A DNA stretch of 54,725 nucleotides from Streptosporangiaceae bacterium. Lineage in GTDB: Bacteria; Actinomycetota; Actinomycetes; Streptosporangiales; Streptosporangiaceae. Below the pieces are notes generated by a model. That model made no database searches and was not told where the DNA came from. It was given only the letters and a program-made list of their open reading frames with translations. Numbering within the stretch: the first letter of the stretch is position 1; every line of letters starts with the position of its first letter. The DNA lies in NCBI GenBank assembly GCA_030045175.1, contig JASIBM010000468.1, positions 1 through 54,725 of the forward strand, written 5' to 3'. Shown here in pieces: positions 15,507 through 26,640 of the stretch. The translations under genes were made by a program, and so were the position numbers.

Positions 15507-16361
15507 TCAGCTCGCTGGCGCGTCGTCACCGCCGTCCGCAGGCTCCTGGCCGGCTGGCTCGCCGGCGGGCGGCTGGCTGGCCTGCGCCGCCTCCGTTCCC
15601 GCCGTCTTCTTGGCCTTGCCTGCGCCACCCGGCTGGCTCACGCCCTGCTGCCGCGTCCCGGCCGGAACCGCCTCGGTGAGCAGGGTCTCCAGGCGGCTGC
15701 CCGTCAGCCGGCGGAACGTCCTGTGCACCTTGCTGCGATCGAGCACGGCCACCTCAAGCTGGCTGGCCTGGATCTCGATCCGGTCCCCGTTGGCCTGCGC
15801 CGCGAGGCCCGCGATGGCGGCGGCCAGCGCCCGCGACAGCGTGGCGCCCTCTGCGTACTGGTCCTTGAGCACCGTGGTGATCTTCTCGGCCTGGCCGCCC
15901 ATCGCGACGTAGCCGTGCTCGTCGTTGACCGATCCGTCGAAGGTGATCCGGTAGATCTGGTCCTCGGCCAGAACCTCGGCCACCTCGGCGACAACGATCT
16001 CGACTTCGAACGGCTTGGGGCTGTCGGTGAAGATCGTGCCGAGCGTCTGGGCGTACCAGTTGGCCAGCCCGCGCGCCGTCACGTCCTGGCGGTCGTACTG
16101 GAAGCCAGTCATGTCCGCGTACCTGACGCCTGCCTTGCGCAAGATCTCGTACTCGTTGTACCTGCCCACGGCGGCGAAGGCGATCCTGTCGTAGATCTCG
16201 CTGATCTTGTGCAGCGCTCGCGAGGGGTTAGGCGCGACGAACAGTATCCCGGCGTCGTACTGGATCACGACCCCGCTGCGGCCCCGCGCGATGCCCTTGC
16301 GCGCGTAGTCCGCCTTATCCTTCATCGCCTGTTCAGGCGACACGTAGAACGGCATCGTCAC
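15507..16361 (-). CDS. prcA: Proteasome alpha subunit
   Basis: MTMPFYVSPEQAMKDKADYARKGIARGRS is the canonical PrcA N-terminus. 284 aa with an acidic/Pro-rich tail. Confidence 0.93.
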   Translation of the reverse strand: MTMPFYVSPEQAMKDKADYARKGIARGRSGVVIQYDAGILFVAPNPSRALHKISEIYDRIAFAAVGRYNEYEILRKAGVRYADMTGFQYDRQDVTARGLANWYAQTLGTIFTDSPKPFEVEIVVAEVAEVLAEDQIYRITFDGSVNDEHGYVAMGGQAEKITTVLKDQYAEGATLSRALAAAIAGLAAQANGDRIEIQASQLEVAVLDRSKVHRTFRRLTGSRLETLLTEAVPAGTRQQGVSQPGGAGKAKKTAGTEAAQASQPPAGEPAGQEPADGGDDAPAS

Positions 16362-16441: not shown

Positions 16442-17335
16442 TTACTCCGTCAATGCCTGGCGCAGCGCCGAGCTCGGGCCGTCCGGCAGGCTCATCCTGC
16501 CCGACAGCACCGACTGGGCGTACGAGCCTGCCTCCTCATCGGTCAGCCGGTGATAGCCGTCGGCAGTCACGGTGACGACGACCGGGTAGATCCGCCTGGT
16601 CATGTCGGGCCCCCCGGTCGCTGAGTCGTCGTCGGCCGCGTCGTAGAGCGCCTGCATGCAGGCCAGGATCGCGTCAGAGGGCCCCATCTGGTCGACGTAC
16701 AGCTTCTTCAGCGACCCGCGGGCGAATACCGAGCCCGAGCCAATCGAGTGGAACCTGTGCTCTTCGTAACGGCCGCCAGCGACGTCGTAGCTGAAGATCC
16801 GGCCCACACCCTCGTCAGTGTCATAACCAGCGAAGATCGGCACCACCACCAGCCCTTGCATGGCACCGCCCAGGTTCGCGCGGACGATCCCGGCCAGCCG
16901 GTTGGCCTTACCTTCCAGTGACAGTTCCCTGCCCTCAAGCTTCTCGTAGTGCTCGAGCTCAACCTGGAAGAGCCGCACAAGCTCGATGCCGATGCCAGCC
17001 ACCCCGGCGATCCCGATGCAGGAGTACTCGTCGCTGCGGAACACCTTTTCGATGTCCCGCTGGGAAATCATGTTCCCGGCGGTCGCCCGGCGGTCGCCCG
17101 CCATCACGACGCCGCCGTTGAACGCGGCGGCCACGATCGTGGTCCCGTGCGGCAGGCCGGCGACGATGCCGGCCGCCACCTCGACGCCGCCGCCGCCAGG
17201 GAGCAGCTCCGGCGCGATCGTGGTAAGGAAATCAGCGAACGAAGACGTCCCCGCGGTCATGAACGGGGCGGTCATCAACCGGGCGGCAGGGTCATAACCC
17301 AAGGCGGTCCCTTCCTCGTGCGCACCATACGCCAC
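16442..17335 (-). CDS. prcB: Proteasome beta subunit (with propeptide)
   Basis: A propeptide is followed by the [26 protein letters not shown] Thr-1 active-site context. Confidence 0.93.
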
Positions 17336-17383: not shown

Positions 17384-17593
17384 TCACTGCCCGCCCTTCT
17401 GCACATATGACCGGACGAATTCCTCGGCGTTCTCCTCGAGCACCTCATCGATTTCGTCGAGGATCGCGTCCACGTCGTCGGCTAGCTTCTCCCGGCGCTC
17501 CTCACCTTCCTTGGTGCTCTGGTCCTGCTCGTCCTGCTCGTCCTGACCCCGCCGGGTGGTATGCCGCTGTCCCCCGGTGTCCTTCGTCGCCAT
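17384..17593 (-). CDS. pup: Prokaryotic ubiquitin-like protein Pup
   Basis: 69 aa, acidic and disordered. It ends DEIDEVLEENAEEFVRSYVQKGGQ (a GGQ terminus that requires Dop deamidation). Confidence 0.95.
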   Translation of the reverse strand: MATKDTGGQRHTTRRGQDEQDEQDQSTKEGEERREKLADDVDAILDEIDEVLEENAEEFVRSYVQKGGQ

Positions 17594-17780
17594 CCGAACC
17601 TCCGCTTCGTCGGCGTCCGCCTACTTAAACCTATCCTGGCCACCGCGCAGACAAGCTAATCACGGCGTTCGGACACCGTGGCCGGCGTCAGCGCCGGCCC
17701 GACGGCGATTCCTGGCCGAGCCAGCCCGCCGGGGCGCCGCGCCCATGCCACCCGCCACTTGCTGTGGTGTCAGGTGCCAG

Positions 17781-17826
17781 GACTGGGTATTTTCTGGGTA
17801 TCAGACTGGGCATTTTGTGGGCATCG
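17781..17826. promoter_or_regulatory. Imperfect 23-nt tandem direct repeat (gactgggtattttctgggtatca / gactgggcattttgtgggcatcg), candidate operator
   Basis: 19/23 identity. AT-rich T-tract cores in otherwise GC-rich DNA. It lies about 50 nt upstream of the GTG at 17876, in the pup-divergent intergenic region. Confidence 0.4.
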
Positions 17827-17875
17827 GCGCTCTATCAGGACGCGACGGCTCTGGAGCGACCGGAAGGAGGCACCT

Positions 17876-18793
17876 GTGGAACGACCACCTTCCCCACCCG
17901 CAGGGCAGGAGCTTATCGCCGTGCTGCGTGCGCTACTTCGGGCCGGTCTGCCACCAGCCGATAACCACGCACTCGACGGGCTGCTTGCCTTGCGGGGCGT
18001 GACGGCCCGCGCCGTCAGCCCTTCCGACCGCTTCAGTCGCCTGCGCGCCCTAGACGGCTTGCTGCGCTGGCAGCTGGCGCGGTTCGAGCATCCACGGCTG
18101 GCCGAGCCAGCCCGGCTGCTGTTCGGCGCCGCGCCCGGAGCGTCTGGGTTGAAGCTGACCGAGCGGCGGGCCAGAGCCGCCGTCGCGGCCGGCTACGACG
18201 CGCACCACTTCCGCAAGTGGATCGAGCCGCAGATTTGCCGCCGCCTGGCCGCCATGCTCGCGGCCGACGATGCTGAGGCTGTAGTTCGCGCGGTGCCGCC
18301 ACATCTATCGCGGCCCCACCACCCACTGCGCCTGCCAGCCGATGTATTTGCGTGGGAGGCAGCCGAGCACGAGCAGGCCATCACGGCTCTGTGGGCCGAG
18401 GTCTACGCGCTGCGCGCTGCGCTGCTGGCGGTCGCCCGCGTCGCCTGCATGCACGGCGCCATGCACCCTGAGACCGGAGCAGCCACCGAGACGGCGCTGT
18501 GGCGTGCGGCACAGCTACACCACGCCGTGCTTGAGTACCAAGATGCCTACGGGCCGCAACTACTCGGCGCCGACCCAGGCGTCGGCCCAGAGGATCTAGC
18601 CGCAGTAGCCGGCTGGCATCCAGCGCTTGACCCTCTGATCCAGCGCGAGCTGGCCGCGATGGCGGCTGTGCACCCGACCTCTGGCGACTTCCATCGTGCC
18701 CTTCCAGTTCCCGCCGCCGAGGCGGCCCAGCGCTGGCGGCAGGAACTGGCCGAACAGTCCACCACCGAACTTAGGCAGGAGCCATGGACCTGA
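17876..18793 (+). CDS. Hypothetical Ala/Leu/Arg-rich, probably all-alpha protein (305 aa)
   Basis: A strong SD, GGAAGGAGG, lies 5 nt before the GTG at 17876. The stop overlaps the next gene start (ATGGACCTGA). I recognise no family. Confidence 0.55.
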   Translation: MERPPSPPAGQELIAVLRALLRAGLPPADNHALDGLLALRGVTARAVSPSDRFSRLRALDGLLRWQLARFEHPRLAEPARLLFGAAPGASGLKLTERRARAAVAAGYDAHHFRKWIEPQICRRLAAMLAADDAEAVVRAVPPHLSRPHHPLRLPADVFAWEAAEHEQAITALWAEVYALRAALLAVARVACMHGAMHPETGAATETALWRAAQLHHAVLEYQDAYGPQLLGADPGVGPEDLAAVAGWHPALDPLIQRELAAMAAVHPTSGDFHRALPVPAAEAAQRWRQELAEQSTTELRQEPWT

Positions 18794-19356
18794 CCAGGCT
18801 GATCGACCCGCTCGGTTCCCCACGCCGCTACGTGATCACTGGCGGGCCATCCGCTGGCAAGGAAGCCGTGCTCGACGAACTGACCGCCCGCCACATCCCG
18901 GTCACCGAAGGCGAGCCGGCTCGCGAGATCTACCGCAAGCACCGCCAGCGCCTCGGCCGCCACCTGCAGGTCGGCGACCGACGCGAATACTCACGTGAGG
19001 TACTTGAAGTTTTCATCGCCGAATACACCACGCACAAGCACGGCCTGCGCTTCTACAACCGCGGCATCCCCGACGGATACGGCTGGGATGCCTTCTTTGG
19101 CCTAGGTCCCTACCCGGAACTGGAGGCGGCCAGCCGGGCATACCGGTACGAGGCGGTGTTCGTCCTTGACCCGCTCGACGACTTCGAGAGCGAAGACGAC
19201 CTCGTGTTCGCCAAGGACCGAGAAATCCGCCGCGTGCACGAGCTGATCGTGCAGGGCTACTACGACGCCGGATACAGCCCGATCTTCATTCCCGCAGACG
19301 AGCCGGCCCGCCGGGTTGATCAGATCCTCGCCAACATCCCCGCCCCTGCCGAATGA
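18784..19356 (+). CDS. P-loop NTPase/kinase-like protein (AAA_28 / NadR-C-terminal-like)
   Basis: 190 aa. Walker A is ITGGPSAGKEAV (18841-18864). A Walker-B-like hydrophobic strand plus acidic run is present (AVFVLDPLDDFESEDD). Its small size is typical of the AAA_28 family. Confidence 0.6.
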   Translation: MDLTRLIDPLGSPRRYVITGGPSAGKEAVLDELTARHIPVTEGEPAREIYRKHRQRLGRHLQVGDRREYSREVLEVFIAEYTTHKHGLRFYNRGIPDGYGWDAFFGLGPYPELEAASRAYRYEAVFVLDPLDDFESEDDLVFAKDREIRRVHELIVQGYYDAGYSPIFIPADEPARRVDQILANIPAPAE

Positions 19357-19380: not shown

Positions 19381-20823
19381 GTGCCCACCGAGAATGCCTT
19401 CGACCTCATCAGTCCGAACACCGTCCTAGCCAACGCGATGCTGCGCACCGTAGACATGGTCCGTCCCCGGATCGAAGCCACCCACCCTGACCGCGTCGCC
19501 CTGTGCGTTGGCGCTCAGATCAACGGCGCACCGCACCTGGGCACCGCCTTAGTCCAGACCGCCGCATTCCTGCTCGCCAAGGCCGTCAAGCGCACCTTCA
19601 ACGTCGACGCCATCGTCCGATTCGGCGCCCTGGACAACGCCCCATACGACATCCGGCTCGATCCGGAGACTCACCACGCCTACCAGCAGACCTACTTCCA
19701 CGCTCTGGGCGCAGCGAAGATCGGGGAACTGATCGAGACCTACTACCGCGCGTTCTTTGACTCGCTTGCGGACGCCACCGGCGTGGACTACGAGACCGAG
19801 ACCTACACCGCCCAGCAGGCCGACCCCATCTTCCGGCACGAGTTCCTGGCCACCCTTGGTCACTTCAACTCGATCCGCTGGCCCCTGGCCCCTTCCCACG
19901 GGCAGGTTCACCTGCGCTTCCCTTGCCCGCAGTGCGGCTGGGCGGAGAAGCGTGCTGAACGCACCCGCCTAGCCGTAGTCGGGTCCGGCGGCGCCGAGTT
20001 CAGCGCGGTCTGCACAGACCACGGTGACTACAAAGTCGCTATCACTCCCGACTCGACCGCCTACCTCGATCTAGCCACCCTCTACCGCAACCTGGTAAAG
20101 GAGCGCGTCGCCGCCCGCGACCACATCACGCTCTGCGTCATGATCAAGGGCGGGGACTGGGCGTTCGGCTGCCAACTAATCGACGAGGCCTTCGCCCACC
20201 TCCCAGGATCTCCGGCCCCGCCGCGCGTGTTTACCCCCATGGTCCTCACCGATACGGGCGCCAAGCTGTCAAAGTCCCTGATCCGCGAAGGGAAGGTGGC
20301 CCCGCCGCCGGGCGCGAAGCCGTGGATGCTCGACACCACGATGTGGGAAGGCACCATCGACTCCCTCGTCGACGCGATGGTTTGGCTGGTCGGTCGCATG
20401 ATGTCCGACCCGAAGCACTTCTACCGCTCCTACACCACCCAAGAACTGGACCGCCTGATGACGACCCGCCCCAGATCGGCCCCGACCATCCGCGCCCGCG
20501 AGATGAACTTGTACCGCCGCTATTTTGACCTAGTCGCCGAAGGCCGCAAGACCATCGAAGTTCGAGTGCGATACCCGAACCTGCGCACCCTCGCCCCAGG
20601 CGACCACATCCGCTTCGTCTGCGGTCGCGACGAATGTCTCACTCGCGTCACACGCGTGGCCGTCTACAACTCCTTCGAGCAGATGATCGACACCGAGGGA
20701 CCAGCCAACGTCAACCCTGACTCGCCACGCGACCAGCAGCTTGCCAGCATCCGCCGGATCTACGGACCGGAGAAGGAAGCCCTCGGCGTCCTCGCCATCG
20801 AGATCGAGCGCGCTGGAAGCTGA
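19381..20823 (+). CDS. Class I aminoacyl-tRNA-synthetase-like catalytic core (HxGx + KxSKS + Zn-knuckle) fused to a C-terminal ASCH domain
   Basis: NGAPHLGT (HIGH-type) is at 19534-19545. CPQCGW...CTDH starts at 19924. GAKLSKS (KMSKS-type) is at 20263-20277. The C-terminal ~105 aa reads YFDLVAEGRKTIEVRVRYPNLRTLAPGDHIRFVCG...YNSFEQM, matching the ASCH/PUA-like pattern. GTG start with GGGAGAG upstream. Confidence 0.6.
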   Translation: MPTENAFDLISPNTVLANAMLRTVDMVRPRIEATHPDRVALCVGAQINGAPHLGTALVQTAAFLLAKAVKRTFNVDAIVRFGALDNAPYDIRLDPETHHAYQQTYFHALGAAKIGELIETYYRAFFDSLADATGVDYETETYTAQQADPIFRHEFLATLGHFNSIRWPLAPSHGQVHLRFPCPQCGWAEKRAERTRLAVVGSGGAEFSAVCTDHGDYKVAITPDSTAYLDLATLYRNLVKERVAARDHITLCVMIKGGDWAFGCQLIDEAFAHLPGSPAPPRVFTPMVLTDTGAKLSKSLIREGKVAPPPGAKPWMLDTTMWEGTIDSLVDAMVWLVGRMMSDPKHFYRSYTTQELDRLMTTRPRSAPTIRAREMNLYRRYFDLVAEGRKTIEVRVRYPNLRTLAPGDHIRFVCGRDECLTRVTRVAVYNSFEQMIDTEGPANVNPDSPRDQQLASIRRIYGPEKEALGVLAIEIERAGS

Positions 20824-20900: not shown

Positions 20901-22415
20901 CTATTTACCGGTCAGCGCGGTCACGAGCTCAGCCGCCGTCTGGCAGCGGTCCAGGAGGGCGCCTACGTGCGCCCTGGTGCCGCGCAGCGGCTCGAGCGTG
21001 GGGACCCGTTGCAGCGACTCACGGCCCGGGATGTCGAAGATGACCGAGTCCCAGGACGCGGCGGCGACCGAGTCCGGGTACTGGCGCAGGCACCGGCCAC
21101 GGAAGTAGGCCCTGGTGTCCTCGGGCGGCTCGGTCATGGCCCGCTGCACGTCGGCCTCATCGAGCAGCCGCCCGACCCGCCCGGACGCGGCCAGCCTGTT
21201 GTACAGGCCGCGATCGGACCGCACGTCGGAGTATTGCAAGTCGACGAGCTGCAGCCGCGGGTGACTCCAGCCGATCCCGTCCCTGGTGCGGTAGCCGTCG
21301 ATGAGCTGGAGCTTGGTCACCCAGTCAAGCTCGCCTGCCAGCCGCATCGGATCGTCGGCCAGCCTGGTGAGCGCGGACTCCCACTTGTCGAGCACGTCGC
21401 AGGTGAGCTCGTCCACGTCAGAGCCGAACCTGTCCTGGGTGTACTTGCGTGCCAGCTCCAGGTACTCCATCTGGACCTGCACCGCCGTGAGCTTCCTGCC
21501 GCTGCGCAGCGGGATCAGGTGCCTGCAAGACGGGTCATGCGAGATCGCGCGGAGCTCGGCCACCGGGCCCTCGATGGACAGGTCCGCCCCGAGGAAGCGA
21601 TCTTCGATCATCGAGAGCACGAGCGAGGTGGTGCCCAGCTTGAGGTAGGTGGACAGCTCGCTCATGTTCGCGTCACCGATGATCACGTGCAGCCTGCGGT
21701 ACTTCTCCGGGTCCGCGTGCGGCTCGTCCCTGGTGTTGATGATCGGCCGCTTGAGCGTGGTCTCCAGGCCGACCTCGACCTCGAAGAAGTCGGCGCGCTG
21801 GCTGATCTGGAATCCTTCCTCCCTGCCATCGGCGCCCCGGCCGATCCGGCCGGCCCCGCACACCACCTGCCTGGTGACGAAGAACGGGGTGAGGTTCCTG
21901 ACGATCTCCGCGAACGGGGTCGACCGGCTCATCAGGTAATTCTCGTGGCAGCCGTAGGAGGCGCCCTTATTGTCGGTGTTGTTCTTGTACAGCTGGATCG
22001 GCGCGGTCCCTGGCAAGGCGCTCGCCTGCGCGGCGGCCTCCTCCATCACCCGCTCCCCCGCCTTGTCCCACAGCACGGCGGAGAGCGGATCGGTACATTC
22101 CGGCGAGGAGTATTCAGGGTGCGCGTGATCAACATAAAGCCGGGCGCCATTGGTCAAGATAACATTTGCCAGCCCGAGGTCCTCGTCCGTGAGCTGGCTC
22201 GCGTCCGCGGTGTCCCTGGACAAGTCGAACCCGCGTGCGTCGCGCAGCGGGTTCTCCTCCTCGAAATCCCAGCGCGTCCTGCGCGCCCTCGCTGCGGTCG
22301 CCGCGTGGTAGGCGTTGACGACCTGAGACGACGTCACCATCGCGTTAGCGCCGGGCTGGCCGGGCACGGAAATGCCGTACTCGGTCTCGATGCCCATCAC
22401 GCGGCGGACGCTCAT
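20901..22415 (-). CDS. dop: Pup deamidase/depupylase Dop
   Basis: [19 protein letters not shown]...HPEYSSPEC...ASYGCHENY, with a Dop-specific insertion. 504 aa. Confidence 0.92.
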
Positions 22416-22502: not shown

Positions 22503-24320
22503 TCACAGGTACTGGCCGGTGTTCGCCACGGTGTCGATCGAGCGGCCGGCCTCGTTGCCGCTCTTGCCAGAGACCAGCGTCCTGATGTATACGATCCGCT
22601 CGCCCTTCTTGCCGGAGATCCTGGCCCAGTCGTCCGGGTTCGTGGTGTTGGGCAGATCCTCGTTCTCGCTGAACTCGTCGACGCAGGCCGACAGCAGGTG
22701 CGCCACGCGCAGCCCCTTCTGGCCGGTCTCGAGGAACTCCTTGATCGCCATCTTCTTCGCCCGGTCCACGATGTTCTGGATCATCGCGCCCGAGTTGAAG
22801 TCCTTGAAGTACAGCACCTCCTTGTCCCCGTTGGCGTAGGTCACCTCGAGGAACCTGTTCTCCTGGGTCTCGCTGTACATGCGCTCGACGACCCGCTGGA
22901 TCATCTCGGCGACGGTCGCCGTTGCCGAGCCGCCGTGCTCGGCGACGTCATCTGGGTGCAGCGGCAGCTCCGCCACCACGTACTTGGAGAAGATGTCCCT
23001 GGCCGCCTCGGCATCCGGCCGCTCGATCTTGATCTTCACGTCGAGCCTGCCCGGGCGCAAGATGGCCGGGTCGATCATGTCCTCGCGGTTGGACGCGCCG
23101 ATCACGATGACGTTCTCCAGGCCCTCGACGCCGTCGATCTCGCTCAGGAGCTGCGGGACGATGGTGTTCTCGACATCGCTGGACACGCCAGAGCCCCTGG
23201 TGCGGAAGATCGAGTCCATCTCGTCGAAGAACACGATCACCGGCATGCCCTCGCTGGCCTTCTCCCTGGCCCGCTGGAAGACCAGCCTGATGTGCCGCTC
23301 GGTCTCGCCGACGTACTTGTTCAGCAGCTCAGGGCCCTTGATGTTGAGGAAGAAGCTCTTGCCCTCCTTGGCCGCCTCGCCGCCGGCACCGTCGGCCTGG
23401 ATGGCGAGCTGCGCGGTCCGCCTGGCCACCTGCTTGGCCAGCGAGTTGGCCACCGCCTTGGCGATCAGCGTCTTGCCGCAGCCGGGCGGCCCGTAGAGCA
23501 GCACGCCCTTCGGCGGCCGCAGCTTGTGCTCCTTGAACAGGTCGGCGTGCAGGTAGGGCAGCTCGATCGCGTCCCTGATCTGCTCGATCTGCGACGCCAG
23601 CCCGCCGATCAGGTCATAGGTGATGTCCGGGACCTCTTCGAGTATCAGCTCCTCGACCTCGGCCTTGGGTATCCGCTCGTACACGTAGCCCGATCGGGGC
23701 TCGAGCAGGAGCGAGTCGCCGGCCCGCAACGTGCCCGCGAGCAGCGGCTCGGCCAGCCTGACGATCCGCTCCTCGTCGGCGTGCGAGATCACCAGTGCCC
23801 GGTCGCCGCCCTCGAGCAGCTCCTTGAGCATCACGACCTCGCCGACGGTCTCGTAGCCGAGCGCGATCACCACGTTGAGCGCCTCGTTCAGCACGAGCTC
23901 CTGGCCCGGCCGCAGGTGGGCGACGTCGACGGCCGGGCTCACCGAGACCCGCATCTTCCTGCCGCCGGTGAACACGTCGGCGGTGCCGTCGGCGTTGGCC
24001 TGCAAGAACACGCCGAAGCCTGACGGCGGCTGAGCCAGCCTGTCGACCTCTTCCTTGAGCGCGATGATCTGGTCCCTGGCCTCGCGCAAGGTCGCGGCTA
24101 GCCGTTCGTTCTGGCCGGTAACAGTGGCGAGGGAGGCCTCGGCCTGGGTCAGCCGCTCCTCGATCAGCCTGGACGCGCGCGGCGACTCCGCTAGCTTGCC
24201 GCGAAGCGCCGCCACCTCCTCCTCAAGGAAGGAGATCTGGTCCGTCAGGACCTTGACCCTGACCTCGTCATCATGGCGTCCGGCGCGAGCGCTGTCGTCA
24301 CGAGAGGCCATGCCTCTCAC
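22503..24320 (-). CDS. arc: Proteasome-associated AAA ATPase ARC/Mpa
   Basis: Coiled-coil N-terminus, Walker A GPPGCGKT, and a C-terminal ...NTGQYL proteasome-docking tail. The start may be Met4 (24311). Confidence 0.93.
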
Positions 24321-24512: not shown

Positions 24513-25382
24513 TTATCTTGCCGACTCGAGCTCGTCGGCCTGGGCACCCTTCGCCGGGCGGCGGCGCCGCGGTGGCGCGCTCACCCCCCTGGCGAGCCGG
24601 CGGGCGGTCACCAGGAAGCCAGTGTGCCCGACCATCCGGTGCTCGGGCCTGACGGCGAGGCCCTCCACGTGCCAGCCGCGCTGCAGTGCCTCCCAGGCCG
24701 CTGGCTCATCGAAGCCACCATGCCCGCGCAGCGCCTCGACCACGCGCGAAAGCTGGGTTGTGGTGGCGACGTAGCAGCAGATCAGCCCGCCCGGATTCAG
24801 GCAGTCAGCGGCCGGCGCCACCTGATCCCACGGCGCGAGCAGGTCGAGCACCACCCGGTCGGCGCCCGCCTGGCCCGCTGGCCTGGCCGGGAAGTCGCCG
24901 ATGACCAGCCGCCAGGCGGGATGCGGCCCGCCGAAGTAGGCTTCGACGTTGCGCCTGGCGACCCCGGCGAAATCCGCCCTGCGCTCGAACGACACGAGCA
25001 GCCCGGCCTCCCCGACGGCGCGCAGCAGCCAGCAGGACAGCGCGCCGGAGCCCGCCCCTGCCTCGAGCACCCGGGCGCCTGGGAAGATGTCGGCGAGGCC
25101 GACGATCTGGGCCGCGTCCTTGGGATAGACCACGGCGGCGCCGCGCGCCATCGACACCGTGTAGTCGGCGAGCAGTGGCCGCAGGGCCACGTAGGCCGTG
25201 CCGCCCGACGCCCGGACGACGCTTCCCTCGTCCGCGCCGATCAGGTCATCGTGCGCCACCGAGCCACGGTGGGTGTGGAACGACTGGCCGGGGGCGAGCA
25301 CGAGCCGGTGCCTGCGCCCCTTGTCGTCGGTGAGCTGGACGTGGTCACCGGGTTGGAATGGCCCGCGCCGCTGGAAGATCAC
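24513..25382 (-). CDS. trmI: tRNA (adenine58-N1)-methyltransferase TrmI
   Basis: GPFQPGDHVQLTDDKGRRH...FHTHRGSVAHDDLIG plus the SAM motif VLEAGAGSGALS. Conserved position beside arc. Confidence 0.85.
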   Translation of the reverse strand: MIFQRRGPFQPGDHVQLTDDKGRRHRLVLAPGQSFHTHRGSVAHDDLIGADEGSVVRASGGTAYVALRPLLADYTVSMARGAAVVYPKDAAQIVGLADIFPGARVLEAGAGSGALSCWLLRAVGEAGLLVSFERRADFAGVARRNVEAYFGGPHPAWRLVIGDFPARPAGQAGADRVVLDLLAPWDQVAPAADCLNPGGLICCYVATTTQLSRVVEALRGHGGFDEPAAWEALQRGWHVEGLAVRPEHRMVGHTGFLVTARRLARGVSAPPRRRRPAKGAQADELESAR

Positions 25383-25458: not shown

Positions 25459-26640
25459 TCACACCCCGGCGAACGCCAGGTCGAGGTCGGCCGTCGCGAG
25501 CACGCCGGCCACCTGGCCGGTCTGCTCGATCAGCAGGTACTCACTCGCGGGAGTCTGCTGGACCGCCTTGACCAGGTCTATGCCAGACAAGTCCGCGGAG
25601 AGCACCATGCCAGGCTCGAGCGTGCGGGCGAGTGACCCGACGTCGACCCAGGGCCTGCGCTCCATCGGCGTGGCCTGGACGGCTGACTCGGCCACGATCG
25701 CGGTCGGCTCGTTGTCGTGGTCCACGATCACCAGCGCCCGCGCCCCGGTGACCTGCGCGCGCCTGACGGCCTCGGCGAGCGGGAGGCTCGCCACCACCGG
25801 GATCGCCCGCCTGGCCAGGTTCCTCGCGCTGACCATGGGCAGCCGCTCGCGGATCCTGGCGGACTTGATCGCCTGCGTGCTCTGCAGCCAGATGAAGACG
25901 GCGATGAACAGGAGCCAGATCCAGGACAGGCTGATCACCGAGTTGGAGGTGCTGTCGCGCTGGACGTACAAGGTGACGCCGACCACCGCGATCGCGAGCA
26001 CCCGGCCGGCCCAGGCCGCGGCGATGGTCGCCGACACCTGGTTCCCCGTCAGCTTCCACACGCCTGCGCGGAAGACGCGGCCGCCGTCGAGTGGCAGCCC
26101 AGGCAGCAGGTTGAAGATCCCGACCAGCACGTTCGCCCAGAAGAGCTGCACGATCACGTCGTGCGTCAGGCCATGCCCCACGACGTGGGCGAGCACGTAG
26201 CCGACCCCGGCGATGGCGAGCGACACGAGCGGCCCAGCCACCGAGATGAGCGCCTCGCGGCCCGGTGACGCGGGCTCCTGCTCGATCTCCGACCAGCCGC
26301 CGAGCGGGTAAAGCAGCACGCGGCGTACCGGCAGGCCGAACCCCCGCGCCACGACGCAGTGCGCGAGCTCGTGCACGAGCACGGAGGCGTAGAGCAGCAC
26401 CACGAAGGCGGCGGCCACGATGTACTTGTCCTGCGTGGTGACGATGTGCATCTGCTGCTCGGCCGGGCTGGTCGCGTACATCCAGACGAGCACGACGGCG
26501 AAGATCAGCCAGTAGGGCGAGATGTAGACCGGGATGCCGAACGGCCTGGCGATGACGATGCCCAGCCTCGGGTCGCGCCTTGGCCCTGGCGCCTGCGATC
26601 CCGTGCTCGCCGCGCCGCGGTTCGGCCCAGAAGTTGCCAC
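25459..26640 (-). CDS. Site-2 (M50) family metalloprotease with a C-terminal CBS pair
   Basis: HELAHCVV zinc motif, multiple TMs, NLLPGLPLDGG, and CBS-like C-terminal repeats. Confidence 0.85.
   Translation of the reverse strand: MATSGPNRGAASTGSQAPGPRRDPRLGIVIARPFGIPVYISPYWLIFAVVLVWMYATSPAEQQMHIVTTQDKYIVAAAFVVLLYASVLVHELAHCVVARGFGLPVRRVLLYPLGGWSEIEQEPASPGREALISVAGPLVSLAIAGVGYVLAHVVGHGLTHDVIVQLFWANVLVGIFNLLPGLPLDGGRVFRAGVWKLTGNQVSATIAAAWAGRVLAIAVVGVTLYVQRDSTSNSVISLSWIWLLFIAVFIWLQSTQAIKSARIRERLPMVSARNLARRAIPVVASLPLAEAVRRAQVTGARALVIVDHDNEPTAIVAESAVQATPMERRPWVDVGSLARTLEPGMVLSADLSGIDLVKAVQQTPASEYLLIEQTGQVAGVLATADLDLAFAGV

Follow-up and report, generated by a model that had tools for sequence, protein, structure and literature searches.

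Truncated paralogues of aminoacyl-tRNA synthetases (aaRSs) such as GluQRS, MshC, TmcAL, and the cyclodipeptide synthases have each revealed unexpected chemistry. GluQRS is devoid of an anticodon domain and aminoacylates the modified base queuosine instead of a 3' end. TmcAL has a class I aaRS-like fold and uses ATP to form an acetyl-adenylate, and MshC is a class I aaRS core that passes an activated amino acid to a small molecule, while the mechanism of BshC is less clear. Here, a gene is described that encodes an aaRS-like core fused to an ASCH domain. It is located in a stretch of 54,725 nucleotides (nt) from a Streptosporangiaceae bacterium (assembly GCA_030045175.1, contig JASIBM010000468.1, positions 1 to 54,725 of the forward strand), which was analyzed as a whole and is referred to as the window. 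Together with two upstream genes, g1 and a gene for a P-loop protein of the AAA_28 family, the fusion gene forms a three-gene cassette.

The activities of ASCH domains have been studied in a preprint in which 19 ASCH proteins, Pyrococcus ones among them, were assayed (bioRxiv 10.64898/2026.02.27.708502). ASCH proteins erase N4-acetylcytidine (ac4C) from tRNA both in vitro and in vivo. Proteins of the 'GKER' as well as of the 'GKTR' type deacetylate ac4C, whether it is part of a tRNA or a free nucleoside, and in TthASCH, a dyad of Lys and Glu proved to be essential. ASCH enzymes of the YqfB type hydrolyze various N4-acylated cytosine and cytidine compounds. The same preprint describes that ac4C is written in Bacillus by TmcAL, which uses acetate and is called an aminoacyl-tRNA synthetase (bioRxiv 10.64898/2026.02.27.708502). 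According to a literature search, characterized ASCH proteins are stand-alone or fused to helix-turn-helix domains, and none has been reported to be fused to, or in an operon with, an aaRS-like enzyme.

In the public record, the fusion protein is merely named 'ASCH domain-containing protein', and scans with Pfam, NCBIfam, and PADLOC gave no usable match for its N-terminal 370 amino acids (aa). A preliminary description made from the DNA letters had proposed a class I aaRS-like core for this part, and the open reading frame (ORF) and all motifs listed in it (NGAPHLGT, GAKLSKS, CPQCGW, and the pair C211/H214) were recovered in place (Table 1). PHROGs divides the protein into two parts: aa 10-362 match phrog_35625, 'tRNA synthetase' (E 2.7e-116), and aa 371-476 match phrog_19935, 'RNA-binding protein'. 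An AlphaFold (AF2) model of the whole protein was built from 39 homologs and reached a predicted local distance difference test score (pLDDT) of 86.5 and a predicted template modeling score of 0.82.

When this model was compared with the PDB by Foldseek, the top match was class I LysRS (1IRX, E 8e-10), followed by many GluRS and GlnRS entries and then by BshC (4WBD, rank 12), MetRS, ArgRS, and CysRS. There were 94 fold matches at E<=1e-3, and the best 50 of these are class I aaRSs and their relatives except for four ASCH chains. Among viral protein models, an unnamed 511-aa protein and several giant-virus synthetases matched best; a 'lysine--tRNA ligase' of 375 aa encoded by Halogranum tailed virus 1 was also found. 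The postulated class I aaRS-type HUP/Rossmann core is borne out by the match to 1IRX and by a profile match to GluRS described below, and the nearest aaRS family by AlphaFold and Foldseek is class I LysRS.

A HMMER search with aa 1-370 revealed a core family of more than 800 sequences, which fall into 342 clusters at 50% identity with representatives down to 23% identity; among 185,579 species genomes, there are at least 297 matches to the core. Conservation was assessed in an alignment of 51 diverse family members sharing 23-58% identity. In this alignment, P51, H52, G54, D259, W260, P286, G293, K295, and K298 are invariant, while C182, C185, C211, H214, R152, R179, R236, R349, and Y351 are conserved to at least 94%, with 96% for each of the four predicted zinc-site ligands C182, C185, C211, and H214. 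T55, S297, and G257 are conserved to 88%, 94%, and 96%, respectively. Searches of PDB sequences with the single protein or with a profile of its close homologs matched ASCH structures alone, whereas the profile of the 51 divergent members gave aaRSs, namely GluRS 9Y81 at E 3e-4 and 1IRX at E 0.14. The alignment of this profile to 9Y81 pairs the motifs in order: PHxGT with PHVGT, GGDW with GEEW, and GAKLSKS with GTKLSKR. This order and the invariance across the 51 members rule out that the HIGH and KMSKS motifs are fortuitous matches. No aaRS model of Pfam (including PF01921 and PF00749) or NCBIfam matches the fusion protein at E<=1. Distant members of the family show sub-threshold matches to Pfam tRNA-synt_1f (PF01921) with E 2.5e-5 to 0.04, and a few members bear the automatic UniRef name 'lysine--tRNA ligase'.

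For class Ib synthetases, a template has been described that consists of HVGT, which is a known variant in GluRS, of KLSKR, and of a Cys-rich zinc site (CxCx24C in GluRS) within the domain that binds the acceptor arm (PMC12088422). The predicted zinc site of the fusion protein is located in the insertion between the Rossmann halves of the model, and its CxxC…CxxH pattern resembles the CxCx24C site of GluRS by its place in the sequence. A class Ib rather than a MetRS-like affiliation is indicated by the HxGT and KLSK[S/R] motifs and by the Cys3His ligands spaced ~25 residues. Accordingly, of the two comparisons that had been drawn for the zinc knuckle, the one to class I LysRS, and thus to class Ib, can be maintained, and the one to MetRS cannot. 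The motifs and the predicted fold together show the core to be, by these measures, a truncated paralogue of the class Ib synthetases, i.e., of the group of Glu, Gln, and class I Lys enzymes, with ATP motifs that appear intact.

Just ~65 residues separate the KMSKS loop from the ASCH domain in the model, which leaves the protein without a helical anticodon-binding domain, as had been noticed before. The ASCH domain does stand in the place of the anticodon region. That it replaced this region in the course of evolution, as the preliminary description had it, is unlikely because the core is widespread as a stand-alone protein without an anticodon domain: most of the 342 representatives are stand-alone proteins of ~360 aa that end without this domain, and for such cores ASCH is usually encoded by a separate, coupled gene.

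The assignment of the C-terminal part as an ASCH domain with a PUA-like fold is firm, and the opposite case is excluded. Pfam PF04266 matches with E 1.5e-9 and 38.9 bits compared to a gathering score of 21.2, and a PDB sequence search retrieved the Pyrococcus ASCH structures 1S04 and 2Z0T at E ~1e-11 and also 1XNE. The C-terminal part of the model superimposes on PH0355 (2Z0T) with a template modeling (TM) score of 0.89 and a root-mean-square deviation of 1.6 Å and has a PUA-like beta-barrel fold; for the Pyrococcus ASCH proteins in general, identities are 34-38% and TM scores 0.75-0.89. The residues G388, K390, E393, and R395 (GxKxxExR) are invariant in 39 fused homologs, and this GKER octapeptide is shared with YqfB, TthASCH, and the Pyrococcus proteins (2Z0T, 1S04, and 1XNE). 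Judged by the invariant octapeptide, the ASCH domain looks catalytically competent. The computed charges differ within the family: ASCH-A of Patescibacteria is basic with an isoelectric point (pI) of 9.6-9.7, phage ASCH is acidic with a pI of 5.2, and the core is acidic to neutral.

Core and ASCH are almost always a coupled pair and, where they are split, translationally coupled genes. This was established with 168 loci whose downstream region could be assessed; they were taken from genomes and metagenomes, from viral contigs, and from look-ups. ASCH is fused to the core in 123 of these loci and encoded by a separate, directly downstream gene in another 34, which amounts to coupling in 157/168 loci, and the remaining 11, all from DNA of low G+C content (low-GC), are without ASCH. 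In split pairs that were read directly, the core and ASCH genes overlap by 4 nt. Among the loci examined, the core::ASCH fusion is confined to the actinobacterial lineage and one other lineage. A sequencing frameshift as the cause of the split gene in phages was rejected as the same split recurs in more than 25 independent loci.

The gene architecture around the core depends on the lineage. In actinobacteria, the order is g1, AAA_28, and core::ASCH in 79 of 80 genome loci. In a lower-GC lineage, AAA_28 and core::ASCH are followed by a low-molecular-weight (LMW) phosphatase, and g1 is missing. The LMW phosphatase gene (LMWPc) was found directly after the fusion gene in L108 (2441-2944), L109 (7447-7938), and four other loci; in L109 it begins one base past the stop codon of the fusion gene, and the fusion enzyme is thus encoded between a kinase and a phosphatase gene. 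Split core and ASCH genes without the kinase occur in the temperate Streptomyces phages Picard and Mojorita, in IMG/VR contigs that resemble them, and on small plasmids. In Picard, the pair (gp28/gp29) lies in the lysogeny region beside the integrase and is annotated 'tRNA synthetase / RNA-binding protein'. It is preceded by gp26-gp27 (L004 6936-7852); one product of these two genes is a HATPase_c_2 protein that resembles anti-sigma factors and carries the annotation 'transcriptional regulator', and the other is a 160-aa protein without family.

Low-GC contigs of the Patescibacteria type carry genes for a HAD phosphatase, the core, and ASCH-A in a row, plus a divergent ASCH-B on the opposite strand, and this module is surrounded by recA, ssb, dnaK, and other housekeeping genes. 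The tRNA genes nearest to these modules are Gln(CUG), Glu(UUC), Glu(CUC), and Lys(UUU), which is the class Ib set. The pattern comprises four independent loci, and five other loci have no tRNA gene. In the Lys locus, there is also a tRNA-Ala gene, which is ~2 kb more distant from the module. As a post hoc observation in a small sample, this adjacency is suggestive. In the low-GC group without ASCH (L098, L101-L107, L120, L153), the gene of an APH-family kinase overlaps the start of the core gene, and the conserved neighbors encode an S66 peptidase, a histidine phosphatase, a NUDIX protein, and a methyltransferase. A class II aaRS paralogue that resembles AsnA and an unknown protein of 262 aa also belong to this cluster. 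Genes for phospho-transfer, i.e., AAA_28, LMW phosphatase, HAD, or APH depending on the lineage, recurrently abut the core.

Rarer fusions combine the core with an S-adenosylmethionine (AdoMet) decarboxylase-like domain or with a GDSL hydrolase (GDSL hydrolase+core). In the metagenomic protein P0238 (L196 1244-2713), an AdoMet/arginine decarboxylase-like domain (PF02675) takes the place of ASCH, and AlkZ-like and alanine dehydrogenase-like genes follow. Distant core homologs with ~25% identity are encoded on a Pantoea plasmid (L203 6171-9951; methyltransferase, core, LOG-family protein, DMT transporter, Ham1) and on a plasmid of Macrococcoides bohemicum (L202 4473-8387), here together with an MFS transporter gene and two genes that resemble those of ATP-grasp amino-acid ligases. 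These two operons look like small-molecule or nucleotide pathways. Neighbors of the nucleotide type found with distant members include NUDIX, Ham1, and LOG proteins, methyltransferases, and EamA/MFS transporters.

In Actinomadura violacea (NZ_JAGEPF010000018.1), the one relative in which a cassette-bearing element could be delimited, the cassette is carried by a Tn3-family element of 8,097 bp (L022 2642-10740, L023). Two copies of this element that are 99.99% identical lie ~150 kb apart, and the element has terminal inverted repeats of ~97 bp, a serine resolvase, and a DUF4158+DDE Tn3 transposase. Several further genomes, among them that of the closest relative, Actinocrinis puniceicyclus, have fragments of Tn3 transposases or resolvases in the vicinity of the cassette. 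The window contains no transposase or resolvase, and a repeat search found neither flanking inverted repeats nor a target-site duplication around the cassette. Fused or split versions occur on plasmids of Streptomyces, Amycolatopsis, and Prauserella, ~12 IMG/VR contigs carry the core/ASCH pair, and in the phages Picard and Mojorita the pair has a moron-like position between the lysis genes and the integrase. Because of its presence on a Tn3 element, plasmids, and prophages, the core gene is regarded as accessory rather than housekeeping; in actinobacteria, the three-gene cassette is a self-contained, horizontally spread unit. The family as such is not a housekeeping aaRS, as the gene is patchily distributed, mobile, and sometimes duplicated. 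For the same reasons, it is very unlikely that the gene is the only copy of an essential aaRS.

The two other genes of the cassette are located upstream of the fusion gene (Table 1). The P-loop kinase-like neighbor mentioned in the preliminary description is the AAA_28 protein encoded directly upstream. Its gene overlaps g1 by 10 nt and is separated from the fusion gene by 24 nt, and the protein is 61-91% identical over 79 of the 80 genome loci. When its family profile was compared with the PDB, the best match, a weak one at E 0.095, was the ribosylnicotinamide kinase domain of NadR (1LW7). The Walker A motif reads TGGPS[SA]GK[DE], in which GGPSxGK is invariant, and in 82 of 84 homologs, the position normally held by a Mg-binding Ser/Thr is occupied by an acidic residue. 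For g1, alternative starts are at 17921 (database start, 290 aa) and 17678 (longest ORF). The AF2 model of g1 consists of helices throughout (pLDDT 89.3). The protein has no match in Pfam, NCBIfam, PADLOC, PHROGs, or PDB sequences, and none among PDB folds, where the best hit had E 0.13. It was found in actinobacterial cassettes only, upstream of AAA_28 in 79/80 genome loci. With identities of 36-53% compared to 60-91% for the enzyme partners in these loci, g1 diverges about twice as fast.

The cassette sits between pup and dop of a proteasome/pupylation locus. A functional link to pupylation was rejected: in the other 79 cassette-bearing genome loci, none of pup, dop, prcA, prcB, and mpa occurs within 6 kb. 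The position between pup and dop looks like a one-off insertion, and DNA homology to relatives breaks off at 17981 and 20813, i.e., at the borders of the cassette. Rfam gave nothing over the whole window, with no T-box or riboswitch upstream of the cassette, and scanning the cassette for promoters and terminators gave no match. The 280-nt spacer between pup and g1 (17594-17875) contains an AT-richer stretch with the short direct repeats ACTGGGTATTTTCTGGGTATCAGACTGGGCATTTTGTGGGCAT at ~17781-17823. This stretch could be an operator or promoter; a sigma-70 scan found nothing there. Downstream of arc/mpa, two ORFs on the reverse strand (24513-25382 and 25459-26640) appear by eye, from their translations only, to encode a TrmI-like tRNA 1-methyladenosine methyltransferase and an M50 site-2 protease, a pair that is presumably similar to that of mycobacterial proteasome loci.

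Table 1. Coordinates of the cassette, its motifs, and further genes discussed in the text. Positions refer to the window unless a locus is named.
Feature	Position	Strand	Remarks
Core–ASCH fusion gene	19381..20823	+	GTG start, 480 aa, aaRS-like core followed by ASCH domain
aaRS-like catalytic core, aa 1-370	19381..20490	+	Rossmann fold, acceptor-domain-like insertion with predicted zinc site, short post-KMSKS segment (segment known from secondary structure only)
HIGH-type motif NGAPHLGT, aa 48-55	19522..19545	+	
Predicted zinc site C182-x2-C185 … C211-x2-H214	19924..20022	+	CPQCGW is aa 182-187
GGDW motif, aa 257-260	20149..20160	+	Start of second Rossmann half
KMSKS-type motif GAKLSKS, aa 293-299	20257..20277	+	
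ASCH domain, aa 375-476	20503..20808	+	Pfam PF04266
ASCH octapeptide G388-R-K390-T-I-E393-V-R395	20542..20565	+	
g1	17876..18793	+	305-aa all-alpha protein; AGGAGG 5 nt before GTG at 17876
AAA_28 P-loop protein	18784..19356	+	190 aa, NadR ribosylnicotinamide-kinase-like; Pfam AAA_28 E 6e-22
pup	17384-17593	-	Named from reading of ORF translation alone
dop	20901-22415	-	Named from reading of ORF translation alone
prcA	15507-16361	-	Read from ORF translation alone
prcB	16442-17335	-	Read from ORF translation alone
arc/mpa	22503-24320	-	Read from ORF translation alone
tRNA genes by Patescibacteria modules	L005 6508-6579; L008 10101-10174; L010 8983-9057; L198 6327-6400; L095 5003-5076		

Compared to known enzymes, the core is closest in fold to class I LysRS (LysK, 1IRX, PF01921); HIGH and KMSKS motifs are present in both, as is an insertion that separates the two Rossmann halves. 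However, identity is ~12%, the core comprises ~360 aa compared to ~520 aa, there is no helical anticodon domain, and the enzyme is not a housekeeping one. With GluRS, both ATP motifs can be aligned, the HxGT and KLSK[R/S] variants are common to both, and the predicted zinc site resembles, by its place in the sequence, the Cys-rich site in the acceptor-binding insertion of GluRS. In contrast to GluRS and GluQRS (YadB), the fusion protein has no match to the NCBIfam or Pfam models and has CxxC…CxxH instead of CxC…C zinc ligands, and GluQRS is not known to be associated with ASCH, a kinase, or mobile elements. TmcAL (PF05636) is the best mechanistic precedent as its product ac4C holds the exact bond that is hydrolyzed by ASCH enzymes. 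Yet, the fusion protein has no Pfam match to it, TmcAL is absent from the best 50 of the 94 fold matches, and the core is class Ib-like; furthermore, TmcAL uses acetate, whereas the amino-acid ligases encoded beside relatives of the core speak for an amino acid. MshC and BshC differ in their CysRS-like lineage, the lack of a known ASCH partner, and their thiol biosynthesis contexts. At the level of gene neighborhoods, the (PIN)-GNAT-EVE operons with ASCH and AAA_17 are similar in that an acyl-transferring enzyme, ASCH, and a P-loop protein come together, often in mobile or defense settings (PMC7641849). An aaRS-like ligase in the place of GNAT mirrors the pair of TmcA and TmcAL. These operons have another acylating enzyme and another P-loop family and contain EVE and PIN, which are missing here; they are likewise uncharacterized.

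The reading that is tentatively favored, and that ranks first without being probable in itself, is that of an ATP-dependent amino-acid- or acyl-adenylate ligase acting on a cytidine-type acceptor, either a free nucleoside or nucleotide or a tRNA, with ASCH as a partner that binds or hydrolyzes N4-acyl-cytidine. It is in line with the preliminary description, in which the fusion protein was suggested to aminoacylate or adenylate a non-canonical RNA or small molecule, a proposal to which the comparative genomics lends weight. In this reaction sequence, the core would bind ATP via PHLGT and KLSKS and convert a carboxylate, most likely an amino acid, into an acyl-adenylate. An amino acid is the likely activated acid because of the affinity to LysRS and GluRS and the neighboring ATP-grasp ligases. 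Subsequently, the acyl group would be transferred to the cytidine-type acceptor, for which the N4 amine would be the most economical target in analogy to TmcAL. ASCH would supply a pocket for (acyl)cytidine and either present the acceptor or, like an editing domain or an eraser, hydrolyze a wrong or spent product, and the NadR-like AAA_28 kinase may phosphorylate the nucleoside substrate or product. A free nucleoside, nucleotide, or nucleoside-like metabolite is ranked slightly above tRNA because of the kinase, phosphatase, NUDIX/Ham1/LOG, and transporter partners. The cassette probably is of benefit in a conflict or resistance setting and not in translation.

Several points weigh against such a ligase. 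The activated acid, the acceptor, and the acylated atom are all inferred for every member of the family, and ASCH may only be a binding module. As the AAA_28 kinase is missing from the phage, plasmid-split, and Patescibacteria versions, it would stand outside the core chemistry, and eleven low-GC loci have no ASCH at all. Class Ib enzymes normally require tRNA for amino-acid activation (PMC12088422), and the tRNA-Glu, -Gln, and -Lys genes near several Patescibacteria modules as well as the basic ASCH partner both fit an RNA acceptor. Many of the neighboring families are generic, and their presence could be coincidence. Finally, none of the PADLOC-DB 2.0 defense models matches any of the three cassette proteins at E<=1.

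A tRNA or RNA modification is a possible, if somewhat doubtful, alternative. Here, the core would bind tRNA via its retained acceptor-domain-like zinc module in the manner of GluQRS and acylate or aminoacylate a base, e.g., C34 or another cytidine, and ASCH would be a reader, a flipping module, or an eraser of a new N4-acyl- or aminoacyl-cytidine mark. The class Ib fold with its zinc module, the precedent of TmcAL, the basic ASCH-A and the class Ib set of nearest tRNA genes in Patescibacteria, and the label given by the phage annotators are in line with this, as is the removal of ac4C from tRNA by ASCH proteins in vivo and in vitro (bioRxiv 10.64898/2026.02.27.708502). However, kinase, phosphatase, NUDIX, LOG, and transporter partners would be unexpected for a tRNA modifier, the core is acidic to neutral and the phage ASCH acidic, branches within small-molecule clusters conserve the zinc module to the same degree, and the tRNA adjacency is a post hoc pattern of four loci next to five without a tRNA gene. 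The same tRNA genes, for Glu, Gln, and Lys, would also suit a genuine minimal synthetase that charges the 3' end of tRNA-Lys, -Glu, or -Gln with ASCH in place of the anticodon-binding domain. Although intact HIGH and KMSKS motifs, the acceptor-domain-like zinc module, class I LysRS as the nearest fold, and the few 'lysine--tRNA ligase' names agree with such an enzyme, it is very unlikely in view of ~12% identity to LysRS and GluRS, the sub-threshold Pfam and NCBIfam aaRS models, the missing anticodon domain, the patchy, mobile, and sometimes duplicated distribution, and partners that are hydrolases, kinases, and phosphatases.

The mobility of the cassette has a bearing on two further explanations. 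A role in anti-phage defense or in superinfection exclusion by prophages appears improbable; the enzyme would act as effector or signal handler, via an amino-acid–nucleotide conjugate or by disabling tRNA, with AAA_28 and g1 as sensor or regulator. It would account for the moron-like position in Picard and Mojorita, the ~12 IMG/VR contigs, the carriage on transposons and plasmids, one locus with TrwB, Dam methylase, an integron-cassette protein, and an RHS toxin as neighbors, and the divergence of g1, which is far faster than that of the enzymes. The absence of PADLOC matches and of a nuclease, TIR, pore, or other typical effector argues against it, as do the housekeeping surroundings of the Patescibacteria copies. 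These surroundings rather point to a more general metabolic role of the core and ASCH pair and also stand against a mobile resistance or detoxification system, to which a slim chance is given. Such a system would be directed against a peptidyl- or acyl-cytosine nucleoside antibiotic of soil actinomycetes, a link drawn from general knowledge, and ASCH, AAA_28, and the core would inactivate or modify the drug. It would fit the two fresh copies as cargo of a Tn3-family element, the actinobacterial plasmids and variable chromosomal sites, and enzymes of the drug-modification type, namely the NadR-like kinase and, in relatives, APH and the S66 peptidase, S66 being the family to which MccF, the protein for immunity to microcin C, belongs. 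The usual resistance-type transporter or regulator is, however, missing from the actinobacterial cassette. Support for both explanations comes from related activities and operons: YqfB-type ASCH cleaves various N4-acylated cytosine and cytidine compounds (bioRxiv 10.64898/2026.02.27.708502), which is in favor of drug detoxification, and the (PIN)-GNAT-EVE operons, which contain ASCH almost always and an AAA_17 P-loop protein often (PMC7641849), are an analog in favor of defense.

Returning to the favored ligase, a more far-reaching version of it is rather unlikely: the family would make and, together with ASCH, proofread or erase a novel N4-aminoacyl-cytidine, perhaps with lysine or glutamate, either as a tRNA modification or as an amino-acid–nucleotide conjugate, and would be a mobile plug-in for microbial conflict.

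A search of the literature on the fusion, the family, ASCH in combination with TmcAL, links to defense, and phage Picard found no description. The family consists of uncharacterized truncated class Ib aaRS paralogues, and the ASCH partner and the mobility are new for such paralogues. Its members occur in Patescibacteria as well as in actinobacteria with their phages and plasmids and are almost always coupled to ASCH, but two thirds of the fusion protein are overlooked in public annotation. The sole proven reaction of such ASCH modules is the hydrolysis of N4-acylcytidine, and the pairing leads to the testable hypothesis that a new cytidine adduct exists, either on tRNA or among the free nucleotides. 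The cassette would represent a selectable function that is spread by transposons among soil actinomycetes. If N4-aminoacyl-cytidine were indeed the product, writer and eraser would be united in one polypeptide, and the family would constitute a new branch of aaRS-derived nucleic-acid chemistry.

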